A stretch of DNA of 64,000 bases from an uncultured Patescibacteria group bacterium (GTDB taxonomy: Bacteria > Patescibacteriota > Patescibacteriia > UBA2591 > CALHIP01), in NCBI GenBank assembly GCA_938030745.1, contig CALHIP010000001.1, forward strand, positions 3,817 through 67,816, written 5' to 3'. Both the position numbers and the translations under genes were made by a program. Every line of letters starts with the position of its first letter. Position 1 is the stretch's first letter. Positions 487 to 17,909 of this stretch are shown piece after piece. A model generated the notes under the pieces. That model searched no databases. It was not told where the DNA came from and saw only the letters and a list, made by a program, of their open reading frames with translations.

Positions 487-2292
487 TTAGAGTTGTTTTA
501 AATCTTTAGTAAGTTCAGCTACCTCTTCAGAGATTTTTTTAATTTTCTCTTTATCTTTTTCTTTTTCAGCAATTTTTAAATCTTCAGTTAAGTTTTTTAT
601 CTTTTTAAGAATAAAATTTTTTTTAATAATTTTAAAAAGCAATTCTAATTCTTGATCAATAATCTTTCTTTCAACACCATCAAAATCTTTCTCAATGCCT
701 AAAATCAAAAAATCAAGATAAAGGCAAAGGTCTTCATCAGCTAATTCTTTTTTAAAATCATCAAGAGTAAGTTTTTCATTTTCCAAAGAAACCAAACTAT
801 AAGATTTTTTTAATTGTCTAATAATTTTTTTTAATTTTTCATTGATAAAAATTTCCTCATTTAACTCTTCGTAAAAAGAAGAAACTTGTTCTGGATGTTT
901 AATCAACAAACCAACAAATCTTTCTTGAGCAACTAATTCTTGATTTGGTTTTTCAATTTCTAATTCTTCTTCCTCTGGTTCTTTTTTCAAAATTTTCTTT
1001 AAATCTTCTCTTAAGACTTCATAAGAAACTTTTATTTTTTCAGCTAAATTTTTAAGCCAGAAATCTTGTTCAATTAAATTACCTATTTTTGAAATAATTG
1101 GTAGTAAATTTTTGACTGCCTTTTTTTTGTCCGACAAATTTTCAGGATCTAAATCTCTAAAAGTTGAAGAAAAATAATATTCCATGATTGGCTGTGAATC
1201 TTTTATTGCTTTTAGCCAGAGATTTTTATTTTTTCTAATACATTCATCAGGATCTTTACCTTCTGGTAGGGTCAAGACTTTTATATTCATCTCACAAGAG
1301 AGAGCTATATCAATTCCTCTTTTTGTAGCTGTCTCTCCAGAAGGATCAAAATCAAAAGCAAGAATTATGTTTGGAGAATATCTTTTTAAAATTTTTATTT
1401 GATGAAGTGTTAAAGCTGAACCAGAAACAGCAACTGTATTTTTTGTTCCTGCTGAATGAGCTGAAATGACATCAAAATTTCCTTCAACCAAAATTGTATA
1501 ATTTCTTTTTTTAATTTCTAATTTTGCCTTATCAAGACCGTAAAGGAGTCTGCCTTTGTTATAAATCAATGTTTCAGGAGTATTAATATATTTTGGAACA
1601 TCTTCTTTTTCTAAAGAAGGAAGGATTCTTCCAGAAAAACCAACAGGATTACCAAAAAGATCAAAAATTGGGAAAATAATCCGGCCACGGAAGCGGTCAT
1701 AATACTGTAAATCTTTTGGAATTTCAAAGTTCTCTTTTGTCTCTGTTCTTGGAATAATTAAACCTGCCTCTTTAATATCTTCTGCCTTATATCCTTTCTT
1801 TAACAAATTTTGATAAAGGACTCGCCATTCATTAGGAGCAAAACCAAGTTGCCATTCTTTAATTGTTTCTTTAGAAATTTTTCTCTCATTTAAATATTTT
1901 CTTGCTTCTTCAGCGTTTTTATTATAAAGAAGATACCAATGATAGAAATTAGCTGCCTCACGACATATATCTAAAAGTTTTGTCCTTTTACTGGTAAAAT
2001 GATAATCAGAAGTTTTTAAACTCACACCAGCCTTTTTAGCTAAAATTCTTAAAGCTTGAGGAAAATCAACACCTTCTATTTCCATAATAAAATCAAATAA
2101 CCCCCCTCCCCTTCCACAACCAAAACATTTCCAAATCTGTTTTTCTGGTGAAACAAAAAAACTTGGTACTCTTTCTTTGTGAAATGGACACAAAGCCTTC
2201 ATGTTAGCTCCAGCTGGCATCAATTTAATATATTCGGAGACAACTTCAACTAAATCTAATTTTGCTTTTATTTCATCAATTGGCGAAGCCAT
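487..2292 (-). CDS. dnaG: DNA primase DnaG
   Basis: 601 aa. CHC2 zinc finger CPFHKERVPSFFVSPEKQIWKCFGCGRGG and TOPRIM motif LVEGNFDVISAH. The length and layout are typical of primase. Confidence 0.9.
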   Translation of the reverse strand: MASPIDEIKAKLDLVEVVSEYIKLMPAGANMKALCPFHKERVPSFFVSPEKQIWKCFGCGRGGGLFDFIMEIEGVDFPQALRILAKKAGVSLKTSDYHFTSKRTKLLDICREAANFYHWYLLYNKNAEEARKYLNERKISKETIKEWQLGFAPNEWRVLYQNLLKKGYKAEDIKEAGLIIPRTETKENFEIPKDLQYYDRFRGRIIFPIFDLFGNPVGFSGRILPSLEKEDVPKYINTPETLIYNKGRLLYGLDKAKLEIKKRNYTILVEGNFDVISAHSAGTKNTVAVSGSALTLHQIKILKRYSPNIILAFDFDPSGETATKRGIDIALSCEMNIKVLTLPEGKDPDECIRKNKNLWLKAIKDSQPIMEYYFSSTFRDLDPENLSDKKKAVKNLLPIISKIGNLIEQDFWLKNLAEKIKVSYEVLREDLKKILKKEPEEEELEIEKPNQELVAQERFVGLLIKHPEQVSSFYEELNEEIFINEKLKKIIRQLKKSYSLVSLENEKLTLDDFKKELADEDLCLYLDFLILGIEKDFDGVERKIIDQELELLFKIIKKNFILKKIKNLTEDLKIAEKEKDKEKIKKISEEVAELTKDLKQL

Positions 2293-3170: not shown

Positions 3171-3623
3171 TTACCAAATGCCAGAAAATAAGAAGCGACA
3201 ATTGCTAGAACCGCCCAGAAATAAAATTTCCGGCTTTAATTTTTCCTTTAAAATCAACCGGGCTAAAATTAAAGCAAAAACTGGCTGAAGTTTTTGTAAA
3301 ATAATGACTGTAGCAAAAGTCACTTCGCCATGAACAGCAGCAAAAAAAGCTTTGGTAATTGTAATTGTACCAATTGCTCCACCAAATAAACAGACCCAAA
3401 AAACTGCTTCCCAATCTTTTAAACTTAACTTTTGAATTTTGAACCAGCCCAAAAACAAAAAAGGACTCAAAACTAGAAAACCAAAAAAATGTTCCAGAAA
3501 AACTACTAAATTAGCTGGCAATTCATAAAATTTCGGCCTAATGAAAGTGCCATCCAAACTCCAAAACAAAGCAGCCAGCATAATCGCCAGTGCACCGATA
3601 ATAATTTTTTTATCAATTGTCAT
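3171..3623 (-). CDS. EamA/DMT-family transporter, N-terminal half (5' part of the frameshifted EamA-riboflavin kinase gene)
   Basis: 150 aa with TM helices. The EamA-like repeat continues in the other frame as FWAVLAIVASYFLAFGKSGLNPSEIDLF..., which joins ORF 2360..3163. Confidence 0.55.
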   Translation of the reverse strand: MTIDKKIIIGALAIMLAALFWSLDGTFIRPKFYELPANLVVFLEHFFGFLVLSPFLFLGWFKIQKLSLKDWEAVFWVCLFGGAIGTITITKAFFAAVHGEVTFATVIILQKLQPVFALILARLILKEKLKPEILFLGGSSNCRFLFSGIW

Positions 3624-5077
3624 TTTATCTTTCTTATAACCCCCTTATTGGCATCTACCTCAACCAAATCTCCATCTTTTAGGACTTTGGTAGCAATTTT
3701 TGTGCCAATAATACAGGGAATATTAAGTTCACGAGAAACAATGGCAGTATGAGATAAGAATCCACCCTCGTCAGTAATAATTGCGGCTGCTTTTTGCATT
3801 GCCGGAACAAAAGTAGGATTTGTCATCGGTGTGACTAAAATCTCTCCTTTTAAAAATTTAGAAACTTCTTTGGTTTCTTTCAGTATGTGAACCTTACCTT
3901 TAATGATTCCGCCTGGGCAGGCTACCATACCTCGGAGTTCTGTAATTGGAACACTGATCTCTTTAATTTTTTCTTCCTGATAATATTTTTTTAATTCTTT
4001 ACCACTTAAAACCTCTGATTCACCATTGCTAAAAATAATAGCATGATCCTTTATTCTTTTTTGTACTTCTTTTCTAGGAATAACCAATTTATTTTTCTCT
4101 AAACTGCTAATTATTTCTGATAATCGAAGTGAAACAACCCCTTCATAGGAAATTTTTAACCTCTTAGCAATTTCATCAAACAATCCTTTTAAATGATAAA
4201 TATAGTAATTGGTTGCTTCATTAGCAAAATTCATCGCATAAGAAGCCTTTTTCATTGCTTTTATTATTTTTTTCTCGTAATTGCTAAAACCATAGATAGC
4301 TAAATTAATTTTTTTAGTTTTTATCTTTTTTATCTCGTTTTTAATATATTCTTGTCCTTGTTTTATTATTTCTTTCACCCTTTTCTCTATTTCTTGAAAT
4401 GTATAACCTTCGCCCCAAAAATAATATTTATTGACAAAAGCATATTTCTTTAAATGATCAAAAAGGCGTTTTTTTAGAATTTTCTTATTCTTTATACAAT
4501 CATTAGCTATTCGTAATAAATTAAGCCTTTCTTTTCCAACCATGGTTATTTTCTCAGGTTTAGAGATAAATTCTATTATTTCGTTTAAATTTTTTTTATA
4601 TTTATCTTTTAATTTATTAATGAAATCCCTAATAAAAATATCGTTGAAGAAAAAATAATAAGCATACGGGATTCCGCCGCCCCAAAGTTTCGATTGCAAG
4701 TCTGTCATTTCTTCTAAAATTTTCGCCAACTCTCTATTGGTTAATTTTTCCCATTTCTTTTTTCTTAGTTTATTAGTTTTTTCAATTATCTTATTAGCTA
4801 TTTTTTCCATTCTTTGCCCATAAAAATAAAAATAATCCGGTTTTTTCTTGTGGATCTTGCTTAATAAATTGATTAAATTTTGGTAATCATCTTCTCCAAG
4901 ATGGCGAGCGCCATTAAATTGACGATAATTTTTTATTTTATAATCTATGCCGTAGATTATCTTGGCATAATTTTTTTTAATTCCCAATCCAACTCCATCA
5001 ACGTATAATAAAGCATGATTTTTGCCTCGCCGAGCAACCGGAATCCATTTTATTTTTCTTTTTATCATATTTTGCAT
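3620..5077 (-). CDS. PEP-utilizing-enzyme mobile (phosphohistidine swivel) domain protein with divergent N-terminal domain of about 390 aa; no ATP-grasp domain (paralog 1)
   Basis: C-terminus reads AIITDEGGFLSHTAIVSRELNIPCIIGTKIATKVLKDGDLVEVDANKGVIRKIK. This is the PEP-utilizers phosphohistidine motif with the catalytic His. The N-terminal domain is weakly homologous along its whole length to the other paralogs. Confidence 0.75.
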   Translation of the reverse strand: MQNMIKRKIKWIPVARRGKNHALLYVDGVGLGIKKNYAKIIYGIDYKIKNYRQFNGARHLGEDDYQNLINLLSKIHKKKPDYFYFYGQRMEKIANKIIEKTNKLRKKKWEKLTNRELAKILEEMTDLQSKLWGGGIPYAYYFFFNDIFIRDFINKLKDKYKKNLNEIIEFISKPEKITMVGKERLNLLRIANDCIKNKKILKKRLFDHLKKYAFVNKYYFWGEGYTFQEIEKRVKEIIKQGQEYIKNEIKKIKTKKINLAIYGFSNYEKKIIKAMKKASYAMNFANEATNYYIYHLKGLFDEIAKRLKISYEGVVSLRLSEIISSLEKNKLVIPRKEVQKRIKDHAIIFSNGESEVLSGKELKKYYQEEKIKEISVPITELRGMVACPGGIIKGKVHILKETKEVSKFLKGEILVTPMTNPTFVPAMQKAAAIITDEGGFLSHTAIVSRELNIPCIIGTKIATKVLKDGDLVEVDANKGVIRKIK

Positions 5078-5252: not shown

Positions 5253-6743
5253 CTAACCAGCCTGTTTTATTTTTCTTACCACCCCTTTATCTGCATCAAC
5301 TTCAACCAAATCTCCATCTTTTAGGACTTTGGTAGCAATTTTTGTACCGATAATGCAGGGAATCTTTAGTTCTCTGGCGAGGATAGCAGCATGGCAGATA
5401 ATGCCGCCCTCGTCAGTAACAATGGCTTTTATCTTTTTTACATAAAGAGATATTTCTGGAGTAGTCATGGAAATGACCAATATCCTATTTGGTTTAATCT
5501 TTTTGTATTGATAAACACTATGAAGAATTTGAACCGGACCACAAACTTTACCTGGAAAAGCTACCATTCCTTCAATCTTTTTTAACTTTTGATATTCCTT
5601 TGGCACTTTTTCTAATTTTTTCAAAGCTTTTCCAGTGTAGATTTTAAGTCTACCTTTTATAAACACATATCCATAACCCTTTTTCCTTTCTTGAATATCT
5701 TTTTTTGTGCCTTTATCTTTTAATATTTCATTAATGGTCAACTCAATTATCTCATCGTAATTTAATTTTCTTCGCCGAGCAATCTCAGCTAACAAAGGTT
5801 TTAAGTAATAATGGGCTATACTCAAATCTTCTATTCTGGTTTGTCGCCAGAGGGTGGTTTCTTGAAGAGATCTCACATAGATAAAAAAATAAGAAGGAAG
5901 ATTTAATTTTTTAAGTTGAGTTATTATTTTTTTAAAATTAGCCTTTTCTTTTTGATAATCAGCTATTAAAACTTTTAAAGTTTTATTTGGATTGTTTTTT
6001 AAAGCTTCTTTTAGTTCGAAAATAACATCATTTAAGGTATATTCTTTAGCATTTAGAAGATAACTTCCTCTCCACTGGTATTTTTTTTGAAAAACTAAAA
6101 TTTTGGAAAAAAGTTTTTTTGAAATTCTTTTTAAAATTTCTTTGACATCTTTTTTTATAAAAATTTTTTTTATTTTTCTCTTTTTATTAATTTGACAAGC
6201 TAATTTAAGGAGTTCCTTTTTGAATTTTAAGTTACGGCTCGGCCGAGGTAAGATATTAAGACGATAAATAATTTCAGTTATTTCACTTTGACTTTTTTTA
6301 TTTTTTAACATCTTTTCTAATTTTTCTATAAGAATTTCTTCAAATAGCCAAGGAGTATAGATATAATTCCAGGCTGGTAAATAAATCTCTAATAATTTAA
6401 CAAACAGAGTTTTCAACTGTTTGGTTGTCATTTTTTTAAGATCCATCTGACTAATTTTTTTACCAGCCATTATCATTTTTTTGTTTTGGAAATTTTGATT
6501 TTTGATTGCATCAATTAAAACCCAGGCCGATTTTTTTAGTTTCTTTAAATAGTAATTTTTTGCTTTTTTAAAATCTGATTCTGCCAAAAAAGTGTTTCCT
6601 CCTATTCTTTTATAAAAAGAAAAATCAGGACAGCCTTGAACTCTCCGAGTATATTTAGTTATGGAAGTATTTACTATATCAGTAACTAATAAAGGGTGTC
6701 TTCCTCTTCCTACAATTTTTCTCCATTTGATTTTTTCTGTCAT
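5253..6743 (-). CDS. PEP-utilizing-enzyme swivel domain protein, paralog 2
   Basis: C-terminus reads AIVTDEGGIICHAAILARELKIPCIIGTKIATKVLKDGDLVEVDADKGVVRKIK. The N-terminal domain is divergent but alignable with 3620..5077. Confidence 0.75.
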   Translation of the reverse strand: MTEKIKWRKIVGRGRHPLLVTDIVNTSITKYTRRVQGCPDFSFYKRIGGNTFLAESDFKKAKNYYLKKLKKSAWVLIDAIKNQNFQNKKMIMAGKKISQMDLKKMTTKQLKTLFVKLLEIYLPAWNYIYTPWLFEEILIEKLEKMLKNKKSQSEITEIIYRLNILPRPSRNLKFKKELLKLACQINKKRKIKKIFIKKDVKEILKRISKKLFSKILVFQKKYQWRGSYLLNAKEYTLNDVIFELKEALKNNPNKTLKVLIADYQKEKANFKKIITQLKKLNLPSYFFIYVRSLQETTLWRQTRIEDLSIAHYYLKPLLAEIARRRKLNYDEIIELTINEILKDKGTKKDIQERKKGYGYVFIKGRLKIYTGKALKKLEKVPKEYQKLKKIEGMVAFPGKVCGPVQILHSVYQYKKIKPNRILVISMTTPEISLYVKKIKAIVTDEGGIICHAAILARELKIPCIIGTKIATKVLKDGDLVEVDADKGVVRKIKQAG

Positions 6744-6823: not shown

Positions 6824-7597
6824 TTATGATTTTAATTTTTTAACTACTCCCTTATTTGCATCAACCTCAATCAGATCTCCATCTTTAATTAATTTTGTCG
6901 CATTTTTTGTTCCAATCACACACGGCTTTTTCATCTCTCGAGCTACTATAGCCGCATGAGAAGTAATTCCTCCTTCGTCTGTCACAAAGCCAGCAGCTTT
7001 TTGCATAGCAATAATTAAATCGGGGTTAGTAGCTCGACTAACTAAAATTTCCCCCTTCTTAATCTTTCCTATATCTTCTTTAAGATTAATAATTCGAGCT
7101 ACTCCTTTTACTTTACCTGGATAAGCACAATTTCCCTTTATCTGGGTTGTTTGGATTTCTGGTTTTTCTCTAATTAATTTTAAATATTTTTTACTTTCTT
7201 TTAAAGATAAGATTCTTATTTTCTTATCCACTGTCAACGAAACGCATCCTTTTTTAAGACGATTTTTTATCATCGATTTTATTTTTTTATTTAATAATTT
7301 TTTGTTCAACAGATATTTTTTTATTTCTTCTAAAGTAATAAATCTTGTTTCTGGTAAAGAAAATCCTAATCGTCTTCCAATTTCTTTTAAAATTGGTTCA
7401 AAACAAAAATTAGAATAAATCAAAAATTCCTTTCGGTAAGCTTTAAGAAAAATCATCGATGCTATTTTATTAAGTAATGATATATTTTCTTTCTTTAATT
7501 TTAACTTACCTTTCAAAGTCCTTTTCTGTTGACTAATAATTTTTTTATAATTTTTAATTTCTTTTATTTTCTCTTCCGGATTTTTAATTAATTTCAA
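6824..7597 (-). pseudogene. PEP-utilizing swivel domain paralog 3, C-terminal part of a frameshift-split gene (6824..8318)
   Basis: C-terminus reads GFVTDEGGITSHAAIVAREMKKPCVIGTKNATKLIKDGDLIEVDANKGVVKKLKS. The ORF is only 257 aa. Upstream ORF 7701..8318 is in another frame and looks like the N-terminal domain of the paralogs. The two together are about 496 aa. A T7 homopolymer at 7671-7681 sits in the gap. Confidence 0.6.
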
Positions 7598-7700
7598 ATT
7601 ATTTTTTAAAATTTGAACGATATCATTTTTACTCCAGGCCGGACCAATATAATAATAAGAAAGCCAACCATATTTTTTTACATGTCTTTCGATAAGTTGA

Positions 7701-8318
7701 TTAATTTTTTTTGTTTTTCCACCAATTTTTATTTTTTAACTTTTGAATTAAAACCTGAATTTTATATAAATCTAATTCATGCTTACGTTGATAAGTTATT
7801 TGCGTTGGAGTTGTTAGTTTACTAATATATTCTTTAATTTTGGGATTTGGTCCAATTTGTTTTTCAATTTCTTTTTCGGCAATTTCAAAAATAGATTTAC
7901 TTCCCATATCAACAAAATTTGGAATCCAAGCATAGATCCTTAGGGCCAGTGTTTTTTCAATAAATTTATTATAAATTTTTATTAATTGTCGATCGTTTAA
8001 AATCTCAGGGTTAATTTTTTTTAATTGGTCTGAAAATTTCTTTAAATTTCTACACTCTTTTATCATTTCTTTTTTAACTTTTTTATGAAATAAATTATCT
8101 TCGATTAACTTTTTTTGAGTAAAATCACACATCCTTTGCCAAGATTTTTTATCAACATACATTTTTATATTAGTCCCTCGATAAATACTTATAATTCTTT
8201 TACAGGCTATACCCAACAATTTTTTCACCGAATGAGTAGCGGCCAAATCCATTAAGAAAATAGGGAAAAAACTTGTCTGTTGACCTTCGAATATTTTTAT
8301 TAGAGAGTTTTTCTTCAT
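7701..8318 (-). pseudogene. N-terminal part of split swivel-domain paralog 3
   Basis: 205 aa, K-rich. It occupies the position and has the composition of the paralog N-terminal domains. It ends about 100 bp before the 6824..7597 ORF in a different frame. Confidence 0.5.
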
Positions 8319-8322
8319 AAAT

Positions 8323-9846
8323 TTATTCTCTTTTTAAAATTTTAACTCGATTGTGATTTGTGTTTATCTCTATTAAATCGTTATCGTGAAGGACCTTAGT
8401 TGCAACTTTAGTAGCAATGATGCAAGGAATCCCAAGTTCACGAGCAACAATTGCTGCATGGCAAGTAATTCCACCTTCGTCAGTAACAATACCTGCTGCT
8501 TTTTTAATAAATGGCATCCAATGAGGTCGAGTCATTCCAGTGACTAAAATATCTCCTTTTTTAATTTTATAACCATCTTTAATATCTTTAACAATTTTTG
8601 CTTTACCAATTACTACTCCAGAAGAGGCACTAACTCCTTTTATTTCACCAATTAATTTTTTCTTTTCTCCTAAAAATTCTTGATGCCATTTTTCGGCTTC
8701 TTTACCAACTAAAATCTTATATCTATTTGGCCAAATTAAATAAGCACAACACTTCATTCTTTGATGAATTAATTTTTTATCAAATTTCTTTTTCAAAAGC
8801 ATTTCTTCAATTTTGTGATGATCGGTATAATACATTTCTTGAAGTGATAAACCTAATCTTTTGCCGATTTCTTTTAAAACAATTGTAATGTAATAATTTG
8901 CTTCATTCATTACTGCTTTTCTTTGATCATGAAGATAACCAAAAAATTCTATCCATTTTAAAAGTCTTTTTGTTTCATTGTCTAATTTCAATTTTTTAAT
9001 TAAATTTTTCTTTTTTCGTTGATAATTTTTAACAACATTTTTCAGTTCCTTTATTTTCTTCTCTAAATCAATATTTTCCTTAAAGTAGCGTTGGATTTTT
9101 TTTAAGAAATAATCTACAGATAATTTAATACCTTGAGCATAACTATTTTTAATCCAGAAAAATTTTTCTTGATGTTCTTGGATAGATGACCAAATTAAAG
9201 ATTTTTTAATTAACTTTTTTGCTTTTTTATAATCCTTCTTTAAAATTTCAGCTAATTTTTTGTTTTTCTTTATCTTTTTAGCTATTTCTAAAAGATTTAA
9301 TTCCTCTTCGTTGGCCCAAGATCTCTTTTTGGGAAAAGTTAAAATTTCTAAATATTGAGCAAATTTTCTCGGTTGATCAATTTTTTCTAAATATTTTTTC
9401 AATTTTTCAGTAATAATTTTTTCTGTATGAAGTCCAAACGGATCACATAATAAAGCTGGAGAATATTCTTCTTGATAAAGATTGATTAATTTTCGGAAAG
9501 TTTTTGCCAATTCTTGATCAGAAAGTTTTCTCAGACTAATTTTTGAAATTTTTCTTTCAAAGTTTTTTAATCTTTTAACCCTCTTTTTCCATAATTTTTC
9601 AAGATTTTTTAGAAAATTTGGTTCTTTCTTTATTCTTCTAATAATTGCTTTTGCCTGTTTGTGAATATCTGGCCAAAGATAGCCAAAATAATTAATCCGA
9701 CCATGAGCATTAACACCTGGAGAAAATGGCTTTTCCATACCTTTGCCGAAATCTTTTAAAGTGTTAACGGTTTCTGCTTCAGCTGCAATAAAAGAAAGAA
9801 GTAATACTCCATCCATTCTTTGAACAAAATATTTTGGTTCTTTCAT
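8323..9846 (-). CDS. PEP-utilizing-enzyme swivel domain protein, paralog 4
   Basis: C-terminus reads GIVTDEGGITCHAAIVARELGIPCIIATKVATKVLHDNDLIEINTNHNRVKILKRE. 507 aa. Its 3' end has diverged at the nucleotide level from the other copies. Confidence 0.75.
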   Translation of the reverse strand: MKEPKYFVQRMDGVLLLSFIAAEAETVNTLKDFGKGMEKPFSPGVNAHGRINYFGYLWPDIHKQAKAIIRRIKKEPNFLKNLEKLWKKRVKRLKNFERKISKISLRKLSDQELAKTFRKLINLYQEEYSPALLCDPFGLHTEKIITEKLKKYLEKIDQPRKFAQYLEILTFPKKRSWANEEELNLLEIAKKIKKNKKLAEILKKDYKKAKKLIKKSLIWSSIQEHQEKFFWIKNSYAQGIKLSVDYFLKKIQRYFKENIDLEKKIKELKNVVKNYQRKKKNLIKKLKLDNETKRLLKWIEFFGYLHDQRKAVMNEANYYITIVLKEIGKRLGLSLQEMYYTDHHKIEEMLLKKKFDKKLIHQRMKCCAYLIWPNRYKILVGKEAEKWHQEFLGEKKKLIGEIKGVSASSGVVIGKAKIVKDIKDGYKIKKGDILVTGMTRPHWMPFIKKAAGIVTDEGGITCHAAIVARELGIPCIIATKVATKVLHDNDLIEINTNHNRVKILKRE

Positions 9847-9860
9847 AATTGTTTAAAAAC

Positions 9861-10487
9861 TTAAGTTATTATAGATTTTTTTAATTTTTTTTCATTTTTT
9901 ATTATATCGTAGAGACTGCCTATTTCCCAATAATTATTTTTTTTACGAATACCAAGGTCATCATTCTTAATATGATAAACTCTTATTTTAAGATTTTCAA
10001 TACTTTGAGCGGCATTAAGAAAAAATAGACAATTTTCTAATTTATCGTCAGTATAAACAATTTCTTTATATCCTTCTTTTACTTTGTCTTCTAAAATTTT
10101 TGTAATCATTTCCTTAGTCTTTTTATTTGTATTACCAAAATCAAAGGTGCTAATAATTTCTTTAAAATAAGGTCTAATATCAAATAATCCTTTTTTTAAA
10201 AAATATTCAGCCCGCCAATCAATTTGTTCTTTATTACCGGTAGTAAAAACAATGTTATTTTTTGTCCAAGACAAAACTTTTTTAAAACCTTTAGCAATTT
10301 TTAACTTAAAGAGACCTTCTCTGTAAGGTCTTTCATAGGCTCGTTCATAATCAAGTGGCGAAATAGTTTTTAAATCATAACCAAGTGATTCAACATATTG
10401 ATCATAATTTTCAAAACCAGTACTTTTATCCCATTCTTCAGGAAACAAAGTATTAGCCAAATCCCAAATGTACAATCTCTTACTCAT
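9861..10487 (-). CDS. HAD-superfamily-like hydrolase (variant motif I), hypothetical
   Basis: N-terminal LYIWDLANTLF resembles HAD motif I (FDLDNTL) with the second Asp replaced by Ala. FTTGN fits motif II and VYTDDKLEN fits motif IV. The assignment is tentative. Confidence 0.35.
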   Translation of the reverse strand: MSKRLYIWDLANTLFPEEWDKSTGFENYDQYVESLGYDLKTISPLDYERAYERPYREGLFKLKIAKGFKKVLSWTKNNIVFTTGNKEQIDWRAEYFLKKGLFDIRPYFKEIISTFDFGNTNKKTKEMITKILEDKVKEGYKEIVYTDDKLENCLFFLNAAQSIENLKIRVYHIKNDDLGIRKKNNYWEIGSLYDIIKNEKKLKKSIIT

Positions 10488-10537: not shown

Positions 10538-10637
10538 TTATTTTAATTTTTTAACTACTCCCTTATTTGCATCAACTTCAACCAAATCTCCATCTTTTAG
10601 GACTTTTGTAGCAATTTTTGTAAAGATTTTTAAAAAG
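10538..10637 (-). pseudogene. Orphan 3'-terminal remnant of a swivel-domain paralog fused behind the ATP-grasp gene
   Basis: 10549-10625 is nearly identical at the nucleotide level to the last ~80 bp of paralogs 3620, 5253 and 12133. It encodes ...TKIATKVLKDGDLVEVDANKGVVKKLK. There is no upstream swivel domain. Confidence 0.6.
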
Positions 10638-11579
10638 CTATAACGTAGTGATCGGTCTTGACTGAACGATGTAGAATTTCTTTTTTTCATAAGCCCACTC
10701 AATATCGCAAGGAAAACCATAATGATCTTCAATTTCTTGACAGATCTTTGCTAACTCTAAAATTTTTTGATTTGGTAAACATTGTTTACTGGCAATCTTT
10801 TTTGGTACTTTAACAATCTTTGTTTTAGCGCCAACCCTAATTATTTTTGTTCTTTGCTCATTAATATTAATATCTATAATTTTCGGCTCTTTCCCTTTTT
10901 CTATAACATAAGTATCAGGAGTAACTTGACCAGAAACAACTGATTCACCCAATCCCCAACTTGCTTCAATAACCATCTGAGTTTGGTCACGAGTAACTGG
11001 ATGAACGGTAAAAGCTACACCAGCTACCTCTGATTCAACCATTTTTTGGACAACAACCGCCACTGAAACTTGTTTGCCATGCAATTTTTTTTCAATCCGA
11101 TAAAAAATTGCTCTTGGTGTAAAAAGTGATGACCAACATTTTTTAACTGTTTCAACAACCTTTTTTCGATCAACTCCTAAATAACTTTCTAATTCACCAG
11201 CCCAGGAAGCAACTCTTGAATCTTCAGCGGTAGCAGACGAACGAACAGCTACATACTTAGCGGATAGTTTATCAAAAGCAGATAAAATTTCTTTTTGAAT
11301 ATCTTTTGGTACTTCATATTGACTAATTATTCCCCTTAAAAATTTTGAAACTTTTTCTACGGTAGAAACTTTTTTAGGATTAACCTTCTTTAGTTGAGCA
11401 TCAATTTCAACATCGATATGATAATTTCTAATAAAATCTTCAAAAGCTTGACTTAAAACAACAAAACCTGGTGGAACAGGAATACCAACTTTAGTCATTT
11501 CTCCCAAAGAAGCTCCTTTCCCACCGGCAATTTTTATATCTTTCATATCCAATTCCTCAAATTTTTTTATAAATTTCAT
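10638..11579 (-). CDS. Stand-alone PPDK_N-type ATP-grasp nucleotide-binding domain protein (PEP synthase / rifampin-phosphotransferase N-domain family)
   Basis: MKFIKKFEELDMKDIKIAGGKGASLGEMTKVGIPVPPGFVVLS...VAVRSSATAEDSRVASWAGE...FPCDIEWAYEKKKFYIVQSRPIT. This aligns with the N-domain of the ppsA at 15510..17909. It stops after the ATP-grasp domain at 313 aa. Confidence 0.8.
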   Translation of the reverse strand: MKFIKKFEELDMKDIKIAGGKGASLGEMTKVGIPVPPGFVVLSQAFEDFIRNYHIDVEIDAQLKKVNPKKVSTVEKVSKFLRGIISQYEVPKDIQKEILSAFDKLSAKYVAVRSSATAEDSRVASWAGELESYLGVDRKKVVETVKKCWSSLFTPRAIFYRIEKKLHGKQVSVAVVVQKMVESEVAGVAFTVHPVTRDQTQMVIEASWGLGESVVSGQVTPDTYVIEKGKEPKIIDININEQRTKIIRVGAKTKIVKVPKKIASKQCLPNQKILELAKICQEIEDHYGFPCDIEWAYEKKKFYIVQSRPITTL

Positions 11580-12132
11580 AGTTTAAATTTAATTATTTTC
11601 GGCAAAATTTTTTTCTTTAATCTAGCAATCAATTATTTATTAAGATTTAATTCTAGTAAGGGTTTGACTGATTTAATCAAAATTTTTAAATCATTATTTA
11701 GAGATTTTAGATCATATCTCGACAATTTCCCGATACTTCTGCCAATTAATCAAATCATTTTTCAATAAGGTACAATAAACCCTTCTCGACTTTTTGGTAT
11801 ATTTTTTAATTTTTTCTACTGAATGAAAATTTATGAAAATAATTTTTCTCTAAGGGTTACTAAAAATCTTTAGCATACCATTCAGTTAAATTCCAAAGAT
11901 CAATATAAAAATGTTTAAAAACTTTTTCTCCATCAATAACTTAAAAACCCTTCTTCTCACCTCTATAGCTACTGTTTGGCGAGGAATTTTTGAGCTAATT
12001 CCTTATTTTCTATTATATTCGAAACAAAATTCTCAGTCAAGCTTTGATATTTTTCTTATTACAAATAAAAGTTGGTAGACAATTTTCCTAAAAAAGCAAA
12101 TATATATGTCGGCTTTTTGTATAGATCAAGAG

Positions 12133-13599
12133 TCATCTTTTTTTTATAATCTTCACCACTCCCTTATTCGCATCAACCTCAACCAAATCTCCATCTTTTA
12201 AAACTTCAGTGGCAATTTTTGTGCCAATAATACAGGGTTTGTTTAATTCTCTTGAGACAATGGAAGCATGGGAAGTTATACCTCCTTCATTAGTAACAAA
12301 AGCAGAGGCGCGTTTCATAATCGGAACAAAATCAACTGAAGTCATTGTTGTAACAATAATATCACCATCTTTAAATTTATGAAAATCTGAACTTCCTAGA
12401 ATAATTTTAGCGATTCCTTTCACTTTTCCTTTATTAGCAATCATACCTTTTATTTCTTTTACTTTGATTACTTTTTCTTTTTTAGGAATCACTATCTCTT
12501 TTAAAAATAATTTAACAATTTTTGGAGGAAGTAATCTAAAACCTTGTTTATTATTTGCATATTCTAAACCGGTAACCTTTCTCTTTGGTAAAACCTTTAA
12601 AACCTTTTTATCATTTTTGTAATATAATTTTTCAATCTCTGCTGGAGTTAATTTCCAAATCTCTTTCCATGATGATAAATTAAATTTATGAGCAATTTCT
12701 TGAAAAAGGGGTCGATAGGCTAAACTGGCTCGAGAAAAAACATTTTTTCGCCACTCATTAAGGTATGTTCCTATTTGAAGGGATAAGGCAATCTGAAGAA
12801 TTCTTGGATTATTGATTTTCTTTAAAATTTTATTTCGTTCTTTAATTTTTATTTGATGTGATTTTAGTAAAATTTTTATCTCTTTTTGACAATTAATTTT
12901 AAGAATTTCTTTAATTTGAGAAAAAATATCATCAATACTCCATGGCTCTTCATTGAAATTTACTGGGATATGACTATATTTTCTTCTATAAAGTTCAACC
13001 ATTTCATTAATTTTTTCATTTTCTTTAAAATTCTTGATCTCATTTTCTTGAATATATCTACCAATTTTGAGTAAAGAAAGTTGAGAATTAAAAAGAGGCG
13101 TGCGTTCTTTGGGATAAGTAATTTTACTTGCTATAAATTCAATCTCTTGTTTATTTTTTAAAGGATAGAGTTTTGCAAGTTCTTCAATTAAGAGTTCGTG
13201 CATTATTCTTCCTAGAGTAGCAGTTAAGGGTAAAGAAGGTGTAAATTTTTCGTATGCTTCTATAAATTCACGATAAGTTTTTAAAGAAAAATCTTTCTCA
13301 ATTTTTTTAGATGCTTCAAGTAATTTATTACCATAATTTTTATATATTTTTTTGAGACTTTTTATTCTAGGTGAAAGACAAAGTTGAGTAACGCTATTTC
13401 CAAAATTTCTCAATATTTCTTCATTGTTAAAAATTGTTGTCCGAGTACCATTTTCAGTAATAATTGGAATTTGATAGCGAGGGGAAACGCCGAAATTTTT
13501 TGCATATCTAACAACACCCATTGTCTCACAACAATCATGAAAAAATGACATATTCCGAGTGACAAAAACTTCCCAATTTTTGTTTTTATATCTAATCAT
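12133..13599 (-). CDS. PEP-utilizing-enzyme swivel domain protein, paralog 5
   Basis: C-terminus reads AFVTNEGGITSHASIVSRELNKPCIIGTKIATEVLKDGDLVEVDANKGVVKIIKKR. 488 aa with a divergent N-terminal domain. Confidence 0.75.
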   Translation of the reverse strand: MIRYKNKNWEVFVTRNMSFFHDCCETMGVVRYAKNFGVSPRYQIPIITENGTRTTIFNNEEILRNFGNSVTQLCLSPRIKSLKKIYKNYGNKLLEASKKIEKDFSLKTYREFIEAYEKFTPSLPLTATLGRIMHELLIEELAKLYPLKNKQEIEFIASKITYPKERTPLFNSQLSLLKIGRYIQENEIKNFKENEKINEMVELYRRKYSHIPVNFNEEPWSIDDIFSQIKEILKINCQKEIKILLKSHQIKIKERNKILKKINNPRILQIALSLQIGTYLNEWRKNVFSRASLAYRPLFQEIAHKFNLSSWKEIWKLTPAEIEKLYYKNDKKVLKVLPKRKVTGLEYANNKQGFRLLPPKIVKLFLKEIVIPKKEKVIKVKEIKGMIANKGKVKGIAKIILGSSDFHKFKDGDIIVTTMTSVDFVPIMKRASAFVTNEGGITSHASIVSRELNKPCIIGTKIATEVLKDGDLVEVDANKGVVKIIKKR

Positions 13600-13809
13600 A
13601 AGGTTGCAATTGATCGGCTTTGAACTATGTAAAGCTTATTCTTTTCCAAGGCCAATTCGATGTCTTAAGGTAATTTATAATGTTTTTCTATTTTTTCACA
13701 CAAATTAGACGATTCTAAGATTTTTTCATTACTTAAGACCTGTTTTGGTTGAAGTTTTAGTACCGCTAATGTCTTTGTTGTATCGACAAATTCTCTTAAT
13801 CATTGTTTT

Positions 13810-14340
13810 CTAGATGTTAACATTAATATCAATAATTTTGTTTTTTTTATCAACCACGTAAGTATCTGGCGTTACCTTACCTGCTACCACATTCTCTTCT
13901 AACTCACGGTTTGCCTCAATCACAAGTTGGTTCTTATCTTTGGTTACTGAAACTACGCCAGCAACTTCGCTTTCAATCAGTTTTTGAACTAATACTGCCA
14001 CTTCACCGGCCCAGGAAGCTAATTTTGAATCTTCAGCTGTGGCCGAGCTTCTTACTACCACATACCTTGCCTTTAATTGATCAAATCATTCCAAAATTTC
14101 TTTCTTTATATTTTTGCTGCTAAAATAAGATTTCTGATCAGTTTAGAAGTCATTTCTACTGTCGCAATTTCTTTTGGATTAACTTTCTTTATTAAGGCAT
14201 CAATCTCAACATTAATATCACTTTCTTTCAAAAACTTGACTTAAAACAACAAAACCTGGTGGAACAGGAATACCAACTTTAGTCATTTCTCCCAAAGAAG
14301 CTCCTTTCCCACCAGCAATTTTTATGTCCTTTTTTGTCAA
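13810..14340 (-). pseudogene. Decayed duplicate of the PPDK_N ATP-grasp domain gene
   Basis: 14225-14325 is nearly identical to 11440-11540, the 5' end of gene 10638..11579. It reads KKFEELTKKDIKIAGGKGASLGEMTKVGIPVPPGFVVLSQVFE, but the start ATG is changed to ACA, there is an in-frame stop soon after, and there are further frameshifts. Fragment 13810..14061 still encodes VRSSATAEDSKLASWAGE. Confidence 0.7.
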
Positions 14341-14368
14341 CTCTTCAAATTTTTTAAATTTTTAAAAA

Positions 14369-14968
14369 TTAAAGAATAATAACTTGAGAAATATTACCCA
14401 CCAATTCTTTGAATTTTTCTGGATCACCTGAAATTTCGGAAAAAGTGCCGTAGTGCATGGGGATGACTTTTTTTGGTTTAATCATTTTAACTGCTTCAGC
14501 AGCCTCTTCTTCATTCATTGTATAAGTGCCACCGATCGGTAAAAGAGCTAAATCAATTTCACCTAATTCAGCCATCTCTTTAATTTTGTCAGTATCACCG
14601 GCATGATAAATTTTTTTACCAGAAATTTCTAAAACGAAACCAACACCTTTACCTTTCGGATGAAATGGCTTAGCCAAATTATAGGCTGGAACAGCTTTTA
14701 TCTTTATTCCATTGACTTCTTTTTCTTCACCTTCTTTGATATTTTCACCACCTACTAAAACTTCAGTTTCTGTTTTTGAAAGAATCTCAATTGACTTCTC
14801 ATCTTTATGATCGAAATGATCGTGAGTAACCAAAATCAAATCTGCTTTCTCGCCAAAAGAGAGATTATAAGGATCAACATAAATGACTATTTGTGGAGTT
14901 TTAATCTTAAAACTTGCATGACCTAACCAGGAAATTTCCAAATTGTCTAAATTAATTGTTTTAGCCAT
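14369..14968 (-). CDS. Metallo-beta-lactamase-fold metal-dependent hydrolase (UPF0173-like)
   Basis: LGHASFKIKT...ILVTHDHFDH is the HxHxDH motif. 199 aa. Confidence 0.7.
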   Translation of the reverse strand: MAKTINLDNLEISWLGHASFKIKTPQIVIYVDPYNLSFGEKADLILVTHDHFDHKDEKSIEILSKTETEVLVGGENIKEGEEKEVNGIKIKAVPAYNLAKPFHPKGKGVGFVLEISGKKIYHAGDTDKIKEMAELGEIDLALLPIGGTYTMNEEEAAEAVKMIKPKKVIPMHYGTFSEISGDPEKFKELVGNISQVIIL

Positions 14969-14992
14969 ATTTTAAAGATTTAATGAAAAATA

Positions 14993-15077
14993 CGGAGGGT
15001 GTGGGAATCGAACCCACAAACCCCTTTCGGGGTCCACGCTCTCCAGGCGTGTGCCTTACCATTCGGCGCAACCCTCC
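14993..15077 (-). tRNA. tRNA-Ser (anticodon GGA)
   Basis: Reverse complement reads GGAGGGTTGCGCCGAATGGTAAGGCACACGCCTGGAGAGCGTGGACCCCGAAAGGGGTTTGTGGGTTCGATTCCCACACCCTCCG. Cloverleaf with a long variable arm and anticodon loop CTGGAGA. CCA is not encoded. Confidence 0.85.
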
Positions 15078-15193
15078 TTTTCTAATTATATTTTAATTAA
15101 ATTTTTAAAAAAATCAATTCTTTTTTATTTTCTGCCCTTCCATATTAATGTGTTAACACACTGAATGAGGATTTTTTTGCTCTAATAAAACAT

Positions 15194-15227
15194 AAAAAAA
15201 CGGTCCGGATTAAATTCCGGACCGACT
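15194..15227 (-). terminator. Rho-independent terminator hairpin
   Basis: Perfect 9-bp stem CGGTCCGGA-TTAAAT-TCCGGACCG. On the minus strand it is followed by a T7 run, just downstream of ORF 15239..15442. Confidence 0.6.
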
Positions 15228-15238
15228 AAAAATAATTG

Positions 15239-15442
15239 TTAACACCATCTTCTTAATTGAGGGTTGTTTAGATAGGTTTGGCCACGGCCACTTCCTCCTT
15301 TATTATTTTGCCTTAATTTCTTTTGCCTTAATTTCTTCTGAATTTTTCCCATCCATCTTCTATGTTGTCGTGAACGAGGATTAAATTTTTCTCCATATAT
15401 TTCTTCAAAAATTTCTAATTCTTCTTGTGTTGGTTTTTTCAT
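15239..15442 (-). CDS. Small basic hypothetical protein (67 aa)
   Basis: Good Shine-Dalgarno sequence (AAGGAGGAAGAA) before the ATG and a terminator hairpin downstream. Arg/Lys-rich. Contains a direct DNA repeat (15311-15343) encoding KKLRQKKLRQ. Confidence 0.4.
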   Translation of the reverse strand: MKKPTQEELEIFEEIYGEKFNPRSRQHRRWMGKIQKKLRQKKLRQNNKGGSGRGQTYLNNPQLRRWC

Positions 15443-15509
15443 TTCTTCCTCCTTTTTAATAATATTTTTGAATACTTTTTACCCCAAAAACGGGTAATTA
15501 TTTTAGGTT

Positions 15510-17909
15510 TTATCTCATAATTTCCTCCTTTTTATTTTTTTCTGTTTTTAAAACTTCAAGGGTGGTCTTTAACACTGTATCTGGATTTAAGGAAATTGAA
15601 TCAATTCCTTCTCTCACTAAAAATTTAGCAAAATCAGGAAAATCAGATGGTGCTTGACCACAAATACCAACTTTTCGGCCATATCGATGAGCAGTTTTAA
15701 TTAACTGACGAATAAGTTTTTTAATTGCCTCATTTCTTTCATCAAAAAGATGAGCCACCAGTTCTGAGTCACGATCAAGACCAAAAGTAAGTTGAGTTAA
15801 ATCATTTGAACCAATTGAAAAACCATCAAAAATTTTTGAAAATTCTTCAGCTAAAATAATATTTGAAGGAATCTCTGCCATCACATAAATTCGAAGCGGT
15901 CTTAAATTTTTTATTTTTTTTCTTAAGCCAAATGAATCAATAATTTTAATTACCATTTTTCCTTCTTCTGGTGTCCGGCAAAATGGGATCATCACTATCA
16001 CATTATCTAAGCCAAAAACTTCGCGAACTTTTTTAATAGCCAAACATTCCAACCCAAATGCTTCTTTAAACTTTTCATCATAATATCTCGAAGCACCGCG
16101 CCAACCAATCATTGGATTTGCCTCTTTTGGTTCATATTGGCTACCGCCAATTAAATTAGCATACTCATTGGTTTTAAAATCGGAAAATCGAACAATTACA
16201 TCTTTAGGATAAAAAGCAGAAGCAATTTTGCCAATACCTTCAGCCAATTTGTCAACAAAAAATTGTTTTTTATCTTGATAACCAAAAGTTAATCTATCAA
16301 TTTGTTTTTTTATCTCCTTTGGTTGTTTTTTATAATTAATTAAAGCTAAAGGATGGATTTTGATTTGATTAGCAATGATAAATTCCTCGCGGGCTAAACC
16401 AACTCCATCATTTGGAATAAAAGAAAGAGAAAAAGCCTGATCTGGTTCACCTAAATTCATCATTATTTTCGTTTTTGGTCTTTTAAACTTAGCTAAATCT
16501 ATCTTTTTGATCTTAAATGGAAGAATCCCTTGATAAACAAAACCTTTTTCACCTTCGGCACAAGAAACAGTTACTTCTTGGCCATTTTTTAAAACTTTCG
16601 TTGCTTTCATTGTTCCTACTACACATGGAACACCAATTTCACGGGAAACAATTGCAGCATGAGAAGTCCTTCCTCCAGTATCGGTAATAATTGCTGAAGC
16701 TATTCTCATAATTGGTTCAAAATCAGGGTTGGTTGTTTGAGCAACTAAGACTTCTTTTTCTTTAAAATTGACAAGGTCTTTTATCCTTTTTATTACCCGA
16801 ACTCTTCCTTGGCCAATTTTTGAACCAATAGCTAAACCTTCAAGTAATACCTTCCCTTTTTTCTTTAAAATATATTCTTCTAAAAAATCAATTTTTTTTC
16901 TTGAAACAACTGTTTCTGGTCTAGCTTGCAAAATATAAAGTTTTTTATCTTTACCATCTTTTGCCCATTCAATATCCATTGGCCGTTTATAATGATCTTC
17001 AATTAAGCAAGACCAGCGAGCAAGAGTTAAAATTTCATCTTCTGTTAAAGCAAATTTCCTTTGTTCTTTTTTAAAAACAGGAACATTTTTTGTCCCTTCT
17101 TTTTTATCATAAATTAATTTTTTTTCTTTTTTTCCTATTCTTTTCTCAATGATTGGTCTAAATCCTTTTTTTAAAGTTTTTTCAAAAACATAGTATTGAT
17201 CAGGTTCAACTCTTCCTTTAACCACATTTTCTCCAAGACCATAGGAAGCGTTAATCAAAACAACATCAGCAAAACCAGTTTCGGTATCGCAAGAAAACAT
17301 TACTCCAGAAGAAGCTAGATCAGAACGAACCATCTTTTGAATACCAACTGATAAGGCAACTTTTAAATGATCAAAACCCATATTTTCTCGATAGGAAATA
17401 GCGCGATCAGTAAAAAGAGATGCTAAACACTTTTTAACGGCCGTCAAAAGTTGACTATCTCCTTTGACATTTAAAAATGATTCTTGTTGGCCAGCAAAAC
17501 TTGCCCTTGGTAAATCTTCAGCAGTAGCTGATGAGCGGACCGCTACATCTAAATTTTTTGTTTTATATTTATAAGATAATTTTCGATAAGCTTTAATTAC
17601 TTCTTTTTCTAAATCTTTTGGCAATTCTGTTTTTAAAATTAGATCTCGAATCTGTTTTGATTTTTCTTTTAACTCTTTTATATTTTTAACATTTAAATTT
17701 TTTAAAATTTCTTTAATTTTTTTCTTTAAACCGGTTTTCTCTAAAAATTGCCAATAAAAAAAAGAGGTGGTAGCAAAACCATCGGGAATATTAATTTTTT
17801 TTCCTAAAGCCTTGATCATTTCACCTAAAGAAGCATTCTTTCCGCCAACTAGAGGAACATCTTTAATACTTATCTCTTTAAACCAACAGATCAATTTTTT
17901 CATAATCAA
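15510..17909 (-). CDS. ppsA: Phosphoenolpyruvate synthase (pyruvate, water dikinase), full three-domain form
   Basis: 799 aa. N-terminal ATP-grasp (VAVRSSATAEDLPRASFAGQ), central swivel domain (TDTGGRTSHAAIVSREIGVPCVVG) and C-terminal PEP/pyruvate TIM-barrel domain. Confidence 0.85.
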   Translation of the reverse strand: MIMKKLICWFKEISIKDVPLVGGKNASLGEMIKALGKKINIPDGFATTSFFYWQFLEKTGLKKKIKEILKNLNVKNIKELKEKSKQIRDLILKTELPKDLEKEVIKAYRKLSYKYKTKNLDVAVRSSATAEDLPRASFAGQQESFLNVKGDSQLLTAVKKCLASLFTDRAISYRENMGFDHLKVALSVGIQKMVRSDLASSGVMFSCDTETGFADVVLINASYGLGENVVKGRVEPDQYYVFEKTLKKGFRPIIEKRIGKKEKKLIYDKKEGTKNVPVFKKEQRKFALTEDEILTLARWSCLIEDHYKRPMDIEWAKDGKDKKLYILQARPETVVSRKKIDFLEEYILKKKGKVLLEGLAIGSKIGQGRVRVIKRIKDLVNFKEKEVLVAQTTNPDFEPIMRIASAIITDTGGRTSHAAIVSREIGVPCVVGTMKATKVLKNGQEVTVSCAEGEKGFVYQGILPFKIKKIDLAKFKRPKTKIMMNLGEPDQAFSLSFIPNDGVGLAREEFIIANQIKIHPLALINYKKQPKEIKKQIDRLTFGYQDKKQFFVDKLAEGIGKIASAFYPKDVIVRFSDFKTNEYANLIGGSQYEPKEANPMIGWRGASRYYDEKFKEAFGLECLAIKKVREVFGLDNVIVMIPFCRTPEEGKMVIKIIDSFGLRKKIKNLRPLRIYVMAEIPSNIILAEEFSKIFDGFSIGSNDLTQLTFGLDRDSELVAHLFDERNEAIKKLIRQLIKTAHRYGRKVGICGQAPSDFPDFAKFLVREGIDSISLNPDTVLKTTLEVLKTEKNKKEEIMR

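Follow-up and report, generated by a model that had tools for sequence, protein, structure and literature searches.

The window analyzed here is a 64,000-nucleotide stretch of contig CALHIP010000001.1 from an uncultured Patescibacteria group bacterium. Its GC content is 29%, and nearly all homologs of its proteins are found in Patescibacteria (CPR), and a few in DPANN archaea. The features that concern us are listed below in the order in which the minus strand is read; G stands for the stand-alone ATP-grasp (PPDK_N) genes, H for their swivel-domain partners, and psiG for the G pseudogene that is the subject of most of what follows.

15510..17909, minus strand: PEP synthase, canonical and full-length (three Pfam domains: PPDK_N, swivel, PEP-utilizers_C)
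14993..15077: tRNA-Ser(GGA), between the PEP synthase gene and the MBL gene
14369..14968, minus strand: MBL-fold hydrolase (Pfam Lactamase_B_3, E-value 3e-36)
13596..14367, minus strand: psiG, pseudogene of a PPDK_N ATP-grasp subunit of the stand-alone type (tblastn of G313, indel map)
14227..14331, minus strand: patch within psiG, putative gene-conversion tract (97/101 identical, 79 nt exact)
12133..13599, minus strand: H488, intact partner with RPH-like helical substrate-binding and phosphohistidine swivel domains (PF00391, AF2 model)
11580..12132, minus strand: noncoding spacer of 553 nt between H488 and G313 (no homology)
10638..11579, minus strand: G313, intact stand-alone ATP-grasp (PPDK_N) gene, presumed trans-acting (Pfam PF01326)
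11439..11543, minus strand: partner patch within G313, encoding DIKIAGGKGASLGEMTKVGIPVPPGFVVLSQ (repeat family D4; exact run 11447-11525)
10541..10627, minus strand: relic of a deleted H gene, its last approximately 27 codons and stop, 87 nt (repeat family D2)
9861..10487, minus strand: 208-amino-acid ORF (no Pfam match)
8323..9846, minus strand: H507 (PF00391)
6824..8318, minus strand: frameshifted H (PF00391)
5253..6743, minus strand: H496 (PF00391)
3620..5077, minus strand: H485 (PF00391)

The PEP synthase gene, 1.1 kb upstream of psiG, encodes a protein only 42% identical to G313. A small ORF also lies between it and the MBL gene. The stop codon of the MBL gene is 1–2 nt from the former start of psiG, and promoter-like sites are present upstream of the MBL gene (15156-15090). 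It is probably the first gene of a unit that still carries H488, in which case co-transcription would run through psiG. A scan for promoters and terminators gave counts at chance level, from which only two sites stand out, neither of them in itself a sign of function: a promoter-like TTGACT-17-TATAAT in the spacer (12040-12012, 11 of 12 positions) and a strong hairpin at 15201-15224. The spacer has no protein or Rfam homology when compared with the ORFs of related loci, the neighbors of the related locus L038, and Rfam.

Downstream of G313, the four genes H485, H496, H507, and the frameshifted H have no G of their own, and outside the swivel domain they are about 30% identical to one another. 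No further copy of G or H occurs in the other 44 kb of the window. An HAD-like assignment for the 208-amino-acid gene was considered and rejected, as it has no Pfam match and does not resemble the HAD gene of the related locus L004. Beyond the H array, the minus strand carries an EamA/riboflavin-kinase gene and dnaG. The GC content is 0.33 in both psiG and G313, 0.28 in H488, and 0.27–0.29 in the other H genes.

G313, H488, and Two-Component Dikinases

The product of G313 consists almost entirely of one domain (PF01326, residues 16-312, E-value 5e-101) and is 60%–82% identical to hundreds of PPDK_N-only Patescibacteria proteins of approximately 313 amino acids. Residues 3-313 match the ATP-grasp domain found in rifampin phosphotransferase (RPH; 5hv6/5fbs, E-value about 1e-55), and the ATP-grasp domain of PEP synthase is matched as well.

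In H488, the swivel domain (PF00391, residues 409-480) is the sole domain found by sequence. The AF2 model of the protein (pLDDT 94.5) has rifampin phosphotransferase 5fbu as its best Foldseek match (E-value 1.7e-14, TMq 0.53, about 580 columns), and the match takes in the helical domain, which is of the rifampin-binding type, as well as the swivel domain. All residues that are invariant in the family (85-sequence alignment A2) are retained, together with the nearly invariant His444, which belongs to a swivel motif of the TxxGGxxxH type (TNEGGITSH; T436, G439, G440, H444). H488 is 75% identical to an ortholog of the same length, with identities of 81%, 89%, and 60% at the first, second, and third codon positions, and it differs from an independently assembled contig, L001, by two SNPs, both synonymous. 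By these sequence measures, H488 is intact and conserved. PEP-utilizers_C (PF02896) is missing from H488 and from the other H paralogs; in the window it is present only in the PEP synthase.

What kind of enzyme might G and H form? The ATP-grasp component is a separate protein, and the second component combines a substrate-binding domain with a histidine swivel domain, the organization of two-component RPH-like enzymes. Three such homologs, HpeHI, CreHI, and PpsAB, are biochemically established: the ATP-grasp protein places a phosphate on the swivel histidine of its partner, and the partner then phosphorylates the substrate (PMC12167813). The likeness includes the separate ATP-grasp protein (G313, psiG), an RPH-like domain followed by a T/SxxGGxxxH histidine swivel (H488), and the adjacency of the genes. 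There are also differences. Both components are smaller here, as G has 313 amino acids and H about 490, versus roughly 40 and 71 kDa in the characterized pairs; one G accompanies five to six highly divergent H paralogs here, versus a 1:1 pair; and the hosts here are Patescibacteria and DPANN archaea, whereas those of HpeHI, CreHI, and PpsAB are degraders of aromatic compounds. As HpeH and HpeI form no stable complex (PMC12167813), partner specificity is not readable from sequence.

The single-chain enzyme RPH-Lm (PDB 5FBS/5FBU/5HV1; PMC4844700), which provides the best structural match for the H488 model, has the same three-module logic, and G313 aligns to its residues 4-316. RPH-Lm is a single polypeptide, whereas the enzyme here is split, and the sequence identity is only about 16%. 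Rifampin is the substrate of RPH-Lm; there is no sign of it as a substrate for G and H. PEP synthase and pyruvate phosphate dikinase have the ATP-grasp (PF01326) and swivel (PF00391) domains in common with G and H, but PEP synthase has a PEP-utilizers_C TIM barrel that H488 lacks, and the body of psiG is much nearer to stand-alone G than to PpsA. By analogy with these enzymes, we take G and H together to be a split rifampin-phosphotransferase-like dikinase, with a chemistry that would follow that of the characterized pairs.

The Pseudogene Upstream of H488

An earlier note on this sequence described a decayed copy of an ATP-grasp gene directly upstream of H488, at 13810-14340. Homology over the full length and multiple lesions bear out the pseudogene, and the homology within that interval is real. 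The interval itself is too narrow; the relic extends over 13596..14367, up to an overlap with the start of H488. It measures 771 nt, compared with 942 nt in intact G313. In tblastn searches, residues 5-313 of G313 are all matched in psiG, in two frames and with stops (residues 5-249, E-value 2e-57; residues 230-313, E-value 1e-17).

The pairwise alignment against G313 that had been proposed as a check maps ten indels (-1, -11, -9, -1, -129, -12, -6, +1, -3, and -4 nt) and several in-frame stops. Five of the indels shift the frame, or six if the terminal -4 is counted; the 9-nt deletion is in-frame, and the 129-nt deletion removes 43 codons. The frameshifts that the note had seen before the VRSSATAEDS segment correspond to the 11-nt deletion after codon 47 and the 1-nt deletion after codon 92. 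No ATG is left to psiG as a start, and both ATGs of the start region of G313 are missing. Here the note was right about the loss and wrong about the register: the ACA that it took for the former ATG is aligned with Asp11 (GAT), while the ATG of Met12 is aligned with AAA and the annotated ATG of G313 with TTT or TAA. The sole possible initiator is a TTG at 14338-14340, which yields a 40-codon ORF (14218..14340) ending at TGA 14218-14220, where the 11-nt deletion shifts the frame; this is the stop that had been placed about 45 codons in. Upstream of the TTG there is an in-frame TAA and nothing recognizable as a ribosome-binding site.

psiG is thus homologous to the stand-alone PF01326 proteins of approximately 313 amino acids over their whole domain and lacks the intact frame and the start codon of a functional member of that subgroup. 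An alternative genetic code was considered as a rescue and rejected, since the frameshifts and large deletions persist under any code; the long genes around psiG read correctly in translation table 11. psiG is a pseudogene of a stand-alone PPDK_N ATP-grasp gene, real and fairly ordinary. For a compact genome that is prone to deletion, it is a little surprising that a pseudogene of 770 nt has lasted through ten indels.

The 3′ end of psiG tells us how the gene was once arranged. It reads ...LYIVQSRSIATL-TGA and is homologous in position to the end of G313, ...IVQSRPITTL-TAG (...QSRSIATL* compared with ...QSRPITTL*), and its TGA (13598..13596) overlaps the ATG of H488 (13599..13597) in the sequence ATGA. 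Because psiG has its own stop at the position where a stand-alone G ends, and because this stop overlaps the start of H488, psiG was formerly the upstream member of two translationally coupled genes and did not belong to a fusion. Nowhere across the psiG-H488 junction do ATP-grasp and H lie in one frame without an intervening stop. Fused forms of approximately 810 amino acids (PF01326 and PF00391) are found among the homologs of H488 elsewhere. The suggestion that H488 was once the distal part of a three-module gene is therefore not upheld. The related idea, that a nucleotide-binding module is being lost now that a second copy exists, keeps its plausible part: intact G313 is present, and the loss of a redundant G is credible, from an ancestor of two genes, not a fused one.

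Age of psiG and the Patch Shared with G313

Outside the patch, psiG and G313 are 65% identical, with 69%, 79%, and 45% identity at codon positions 1, 2, and 3. Pairs of functional orthologs (G313 and the G genes of the related loci L004 and L006) have 77%–83%, 86%–88%, and 48%–55%. Third positions are 81% A+T, so that random identity there is approximately 35%; at 45%, the third positions of psiG are essentially saturated while its second positions are still conserved. Read at the codon level, the pattern is one of long divergence under protein-level selection and not of neutral decay of a fresh duplicate. Positions 1 and 2 of psiG have also fallen below the values of the functional pairs, as is expected under relaxed constraint, and by this comparison psiG has picked up, as an upper bound, roughly 8% more change at its constrained positions after it was inactivated.

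Comparisons with other genomes agree. psiG is equally distant from the three orthologs (G313, L004, L006), and at the protein level its body is 46%–48% identical to its own G313 and up to 51% identical to G proteins of other genomes. Using a frame-corrected, patch-free translation of 205 amino acids, we found no relative more than 51% identical among 5.8 billion proteins, whereas living G proteins are at least 57%–60% identical to one another. The top matches are all stand-alone, PF01326-only proteins of approximately 311–317 amino acids. The N-terminus of PpsA was rejected as a source of psiG (77 bits, versus 215–240 for stand-alone G proteins). We conclude from these comparisons that psiG descends from an old stand-alone G paralog. 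The same search demonstrated neither a horizontal origin nor an intact pair of psiG's functional ancestor (here called G′) with H488 elsewhere. An exact-sequence look-up of G313 returned no record and thereby yielded no further copy of the locus. The nearest match to G313 in the GTDB species representatives, a set that does not include the source genome, is 81% identical and lies on a 2.9-kb contig, so that this set offers no true sister locus against which the decay could be dated.

Against this background, one short segment is strikingly different. Positions 14225-14325 are identical to 11437-11537 at 97 of 101 positions, at an offset of 2,788 nt. The earlier note had seen this duplicate and its identity correctly, with a partner (11440-11540) that was off by 3 nt. 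Its longest stretch without a mismatch measures 79 nt (14235-14313 and 11447-11525). Given a background identity of 65% between the two genes, such a run has a chance of approximately 1e-12 to 2e-12, and still only approximately 2e-11 at 73%, the identity of orthologs in the patch motif. Over the 91 nt of 11447-11537 and 14235-14325, identity is 98.9% (100%, 100%, and 97% by codon position), versus 66%–75% in the flanks, and it drops abruptly at both edges. The 3′ edge is the 11-nt deletion and the 5′ edge is the divergent start region. In the same segment, third positions of G orthologs are only approximately 50% identical to each other, and the L004 and L006 orthologs are equally distant from the G313 patch and the psiG patch, which favors neither copy as the donor. 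Because the near-identity includes third positions, protein constraint cannot explain the patch.

An abrupt break in identity that includes synonymous sites is the signature of gene conversion, and we infer from it that the patch is best read as a recent, short conversion tract between G313 and psiG. As the body of psiG is long diverged, the 97% identity of the patch points to conversion and is no sign of youth. The patch coincides with the family's most conserved motif, GGKGASLGEM...PPGF, at which paralogs would keep enough identity to seed recombination. Conversion tracts within otherwise diverged paralogs are known from the concerted evolution of tufA and tufB in enterobacteria and from CYP21A2 and CYP21A1P in humans. 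The psiG patch is like them in that silent sites are included, a conserved segment may serve as the seed, and an indel forms a boundary. It differs in that psiG and G313 have one tract only.

Origin of psiG and of the H Array

G313 has lost a neighbor of its own. About 10 nt past its stop codon begins the H relic, in which tblastn with a swivel query matches residues 65-93 at 86% identity; in a register alignment, the homology ends at about 10622. In the closest relatives (L004, L005, L038), an H gene directly follows G. The H gene that once stood behind G313 has been deleted except for its last 87 nt, with approximately 1.35 kb gone, a loss that mirrors that of psiG. The last approximately 85 nt of the H paralogs are 77%–89% identical, whereas identity is 58%–65% in the adjoining 100 nt; the H relic is a mosaic. 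The locus as a whole thus seems prone to conversion among the conserved ends of its genes.

In 30 related loci, a single stand-alone G usually shares its strand with one to seven or more H genes, which makes the loss of a redundant G plausible. Two of these loci contain remnants: in L023 an ORF opens with the last approximately 80 residues of G and continues into H, and in L033 frameshifted fragments of G lie beside H genes. The distribution supports, short of proving, a scheme in which one G would charge several H subunits in trans and surplus copies of G would repeatedly be lost. No G stands upstream of the H488 orthologs of L002 and L003, so the pairing of G′ with H488 is seen in the present lineage only.

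Putting these observations together, we think it likely that psiG is what remains of G′, the upstream gene of an old coupled G′-H488 pair and a paralog of G313, and that the patch was added later by gene conversion. G′ would have been a long-diverged paralog of G313, paired upstream with H488 in a split RPH-like dikinase. By analogy with RPH, HpeHI, and PpsAB, G would bind ATP and then phosphorylate the swivel His444 of H, and the swivel domain would carry the phosphate to a small molecule held in the helical domain of H. If a single G can serve all H subunits, G′ would have been freed from selection; it would then have lost its start codons and gained ten indels and several stops while H488 was kept intact, and H488 would presumably now be phosphorylated in trans by G313. 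More recently, nonreciprocal recombination between G313 and psiG may have homogenized about 80–105 nt, ending at the 11-nt deletion.

Could the segment instead have arrived from elsewhere? A foreign or relocated cassette of G′, H488, and the spacer might have been inserted by Campbell-type homologous recombination at the 5′ motif of a resident G, the two copies of the patch being crossover-associated direct repeats and G′ being dead on arrival or dying later. The geometry fits, as direct repeats 2,788 nt apart exactly flank the body of psiG, H488, and the spacer. The locus is moreover recombinationally fluid, given that the order of H genes varies among the window, L004, and L038; the orthologs of H488 in L002 and L003 stand in quite different neighborhoods, a tRNA-Ser gene is close by, and the body of psiG is equidistant from all sampled G genes. 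Yet the near-perfect patch would make the event recent, and with ten indels in the body of psiG, G′ would have had to arrive dead. The GC contents of psiG and H488 fit those of G313 and the other H genes, the search of 5.8 billion proteins turned up no lineage that could be a close living donor, and mobile-element genes are absent. We regard such an insertion as rather unlikely.

Much less probable still, and contradicted by the data, is that G313 was recently duplicated in tandem and that the copy then decayed neutrally and very rapidly, with the patch as a stretch that has so far escaped divergence. A recent, decaying duplication was the alternative offered by the earlier note, and it would suit two copies that lie near each other on the same strand and share a segment of 97%–99% identity. 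Neutral decay, however, should strike all codon positions equally, as the 69/79/45% pattern does not; psiG is no nearer to G313 than to orthologs of other species; and identity falls abruptly from 99% to about 65%–75% at both edges of the patch.

Equally hard to credit is a function of its own for the 5′ end of psiG, as a 40-residue peptide translated from TTG 14340 or as a cis element or leader for H488. In its favor, the one ORF that is left (14218..14340) is matched almost exactly by the patch, and any transcript that reaches H488 from the side of the MBL gene has to pass through psiG. Against it, the ORF has no ATG and no recognizable ribosome-binding site, and it is preceded by an in-frame TAA; selection on a peptide would not keep synonymous sites identical to those of a paralog; and the indel at which the patch stops is in keeping with a conversion tract.

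There remains the question of whether the lesions are errors, as homopolymer errors would be if they vanished in other assemblies. The Logan contig L001 (run ERR9287632) corresponds to 11508-14264 of the window with four SNPs and no indels, and it repeats every indel of psiG over 13600-14264. One of its SNPs places a psiG-type base at position 11526, which makes the exact repeat 91 nt long, and both ends of L001 lie exactly 30 nt inside this repeat. Ends that reach k-1 nt into a repeat are what a k=31 graph gives when it breaks at a true repeat, so both copies, with distinct flanks, were present in the reads. L001 and the window may share an environment of origin, and perhaps even a study, so that L001 excludes assembler error and not population-wide polymorphism. 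A second intact ATP-grasp gene, hidden by sequencing or assembly errors or by a chimeric mis-join at the patch, is therefore scarcely conceivable: the source is a metagenome assembly and two other genes in the same 15 kb have a single frameshift each (one at an A-run), but homopolymer error is impossible for deletions of 129, 12, 11, 9, and 6 nt, both start ATGs are gone, and an independent assembly has the same lesions. The pseudogene call survives.

psiG is a further example of known things, a PF01326 pseudogene with a conversion tract in a two-component RPH-like cluster. For annotation, it illustrates that a patch of 97% identity can make an old dead paralog look like a recent duplicate, and that such a patch also breaks short-read assembly graphs. 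Resistome surveys may mis-score H genes as rifampin-resistance or PEP-synthase genes. For the family, the loss indicates that the ATP-grasp subunit is dispensable for an individual pair in split RPH-like systems, which supports the view that one G serves many H.

The surrounding array of one G and many H genes in CPR and DPANN genomes is more interesting than psiG itself, and it draws attention to an unstudied group of RPH-like substrate subunits that have expanded abundantly in Patescibacteria and DPANN archaea. It is tempting to hypothesize, quite tentatively, that the locus is a snapshot of consolidation in these groups, in which dedicated G-H pairs would give way to one G charging a fast-diverging H array, redundant G copies would decay (psiG, L023, L033), and the conserved ends of the genes (5′ in G, 3′ in H) would be hot spots of recombination and conversion. 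If so, the H array would represent an uncharacterized, possibly large repertoire of small-molecule phosphorylation, for detoxification or salvage, in these ultra-small symbionts.

A relic of H behind the intact G gene

Besides psiG, the wrecked pseudogene of the ATP-grasp subunit G that lies directly upstream of H488, the window carries a remnant of H, the swivel-domain partner of G:

10541-10627, minus strand: H-gene relic, the final approximately 27 codons of a swivel-domain gene, immediately 3' of the stop codon of the intact ATP-grasp gene

The remaining approximately 1.35 kb of this H gene has been deleted. The relic and the intact ATP-grasp gene form the mirror image of the psiG/H488 pair. 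A 64 amino acid ORF called across the relic (10538..10732) is spurious.

The 3' ends of the H paralogues (compared at 3623-3709, 5265-5351, 6830-6916, 10541-10627 and 12142-12228) share 77-89% mutual identity over the final approximately 85 nt, compared with 58-65% across the adjoining 100 nt; the paralogue H507 is the exception. The relic itself is a mosaic, in which 36 nt match one paralogue exactly and 39 nt another. Judged from these alignments, the shared ends and the mosaic relic suggest concerted evolution or conversion.

Other disrupted genes and intergenic elements

Two further genes are broken:

6824-8318, minus strand: frameshifted H paralogue, break at approximately 7701-7735, leaving ORFs of 205 and 257 amino acids
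2360-3623, minus strand: EamA transporter/riboflavin-kinase fusion gene, one frameshift at approximately 3219-3247, giving two ORFs

The single frameshift in the H paralogue is located in an A-run (…GGAAAAACAAAAAAAATTAA…), and the stretch between its two ORFs retains H-like coding. Slippage or an assembly error could account for the break, or the gene may have become a pseudogene only recently. At the related locus L038, the H gene following G is also broken (156 and 254 amino acids). The fusion gene, an unbroken 428 amino acid ORF in the syntenic locus L004, is the third gene disrupted inside 15 kb.

Three intergenic features were recorded, the last two in the gap that separates the PEP synthase block from the block of MBL (an MBL-fold hydrolase gene), psiG and H488:

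11580-12132: spacer of 553 nt in a genome elsewhere tightly packed
14993-15077, minus strand: tRNA-Ser(GGA) gene
15201-15224, minus strand: strong, GC-rich terminator-like hairpin

No coding or RNA homology was detectable in the spacer, which holds the region's top promoter-like site (TTGACT-17-TATAAT, 12040-12012, minus strand).

G and H in related genomes

Unusual architectures were found at two related loci:

L023 44-3313: 1089 amino acid ORF with an ATP-grasp domain and two swivel-domain matches
L023 4612-6396: H gene whose ORF starts with the final approximately 80 residues of G
L033 9977-10275: frameshifted G fragments 3' of an H gene

Remnants of G are therefore a recurring feature among relatives. 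Runs of 4 to 7 or more successive H genes occur in L004 (1-12369) and L002 (3347-8883), with at most one G alongside, and these H genes are highly divergent (approximately 30% identity outside the swivel domain). Despite G identities of 79-82%, gene order is not conserved among the window, L004 and L038. The window dnaG (487..2292, 601 amino acids) lacks the Hint/intein insertion of its L004 homologue (13736-16684), which is 982 amino acids long and has Hint/intein domain matches.

At L003 (5691-14010), an H488 orthologue (71% identity), with no G found at the locus, is surrounded by RNA-repair genes; its neighbours are archease, RtcB, a ThiI/NFACT-R-like gene, His_Phos_1, RtcA and DUF763. This neighbourhood may be a clue to the substrate or pathway, or else a coincidence.
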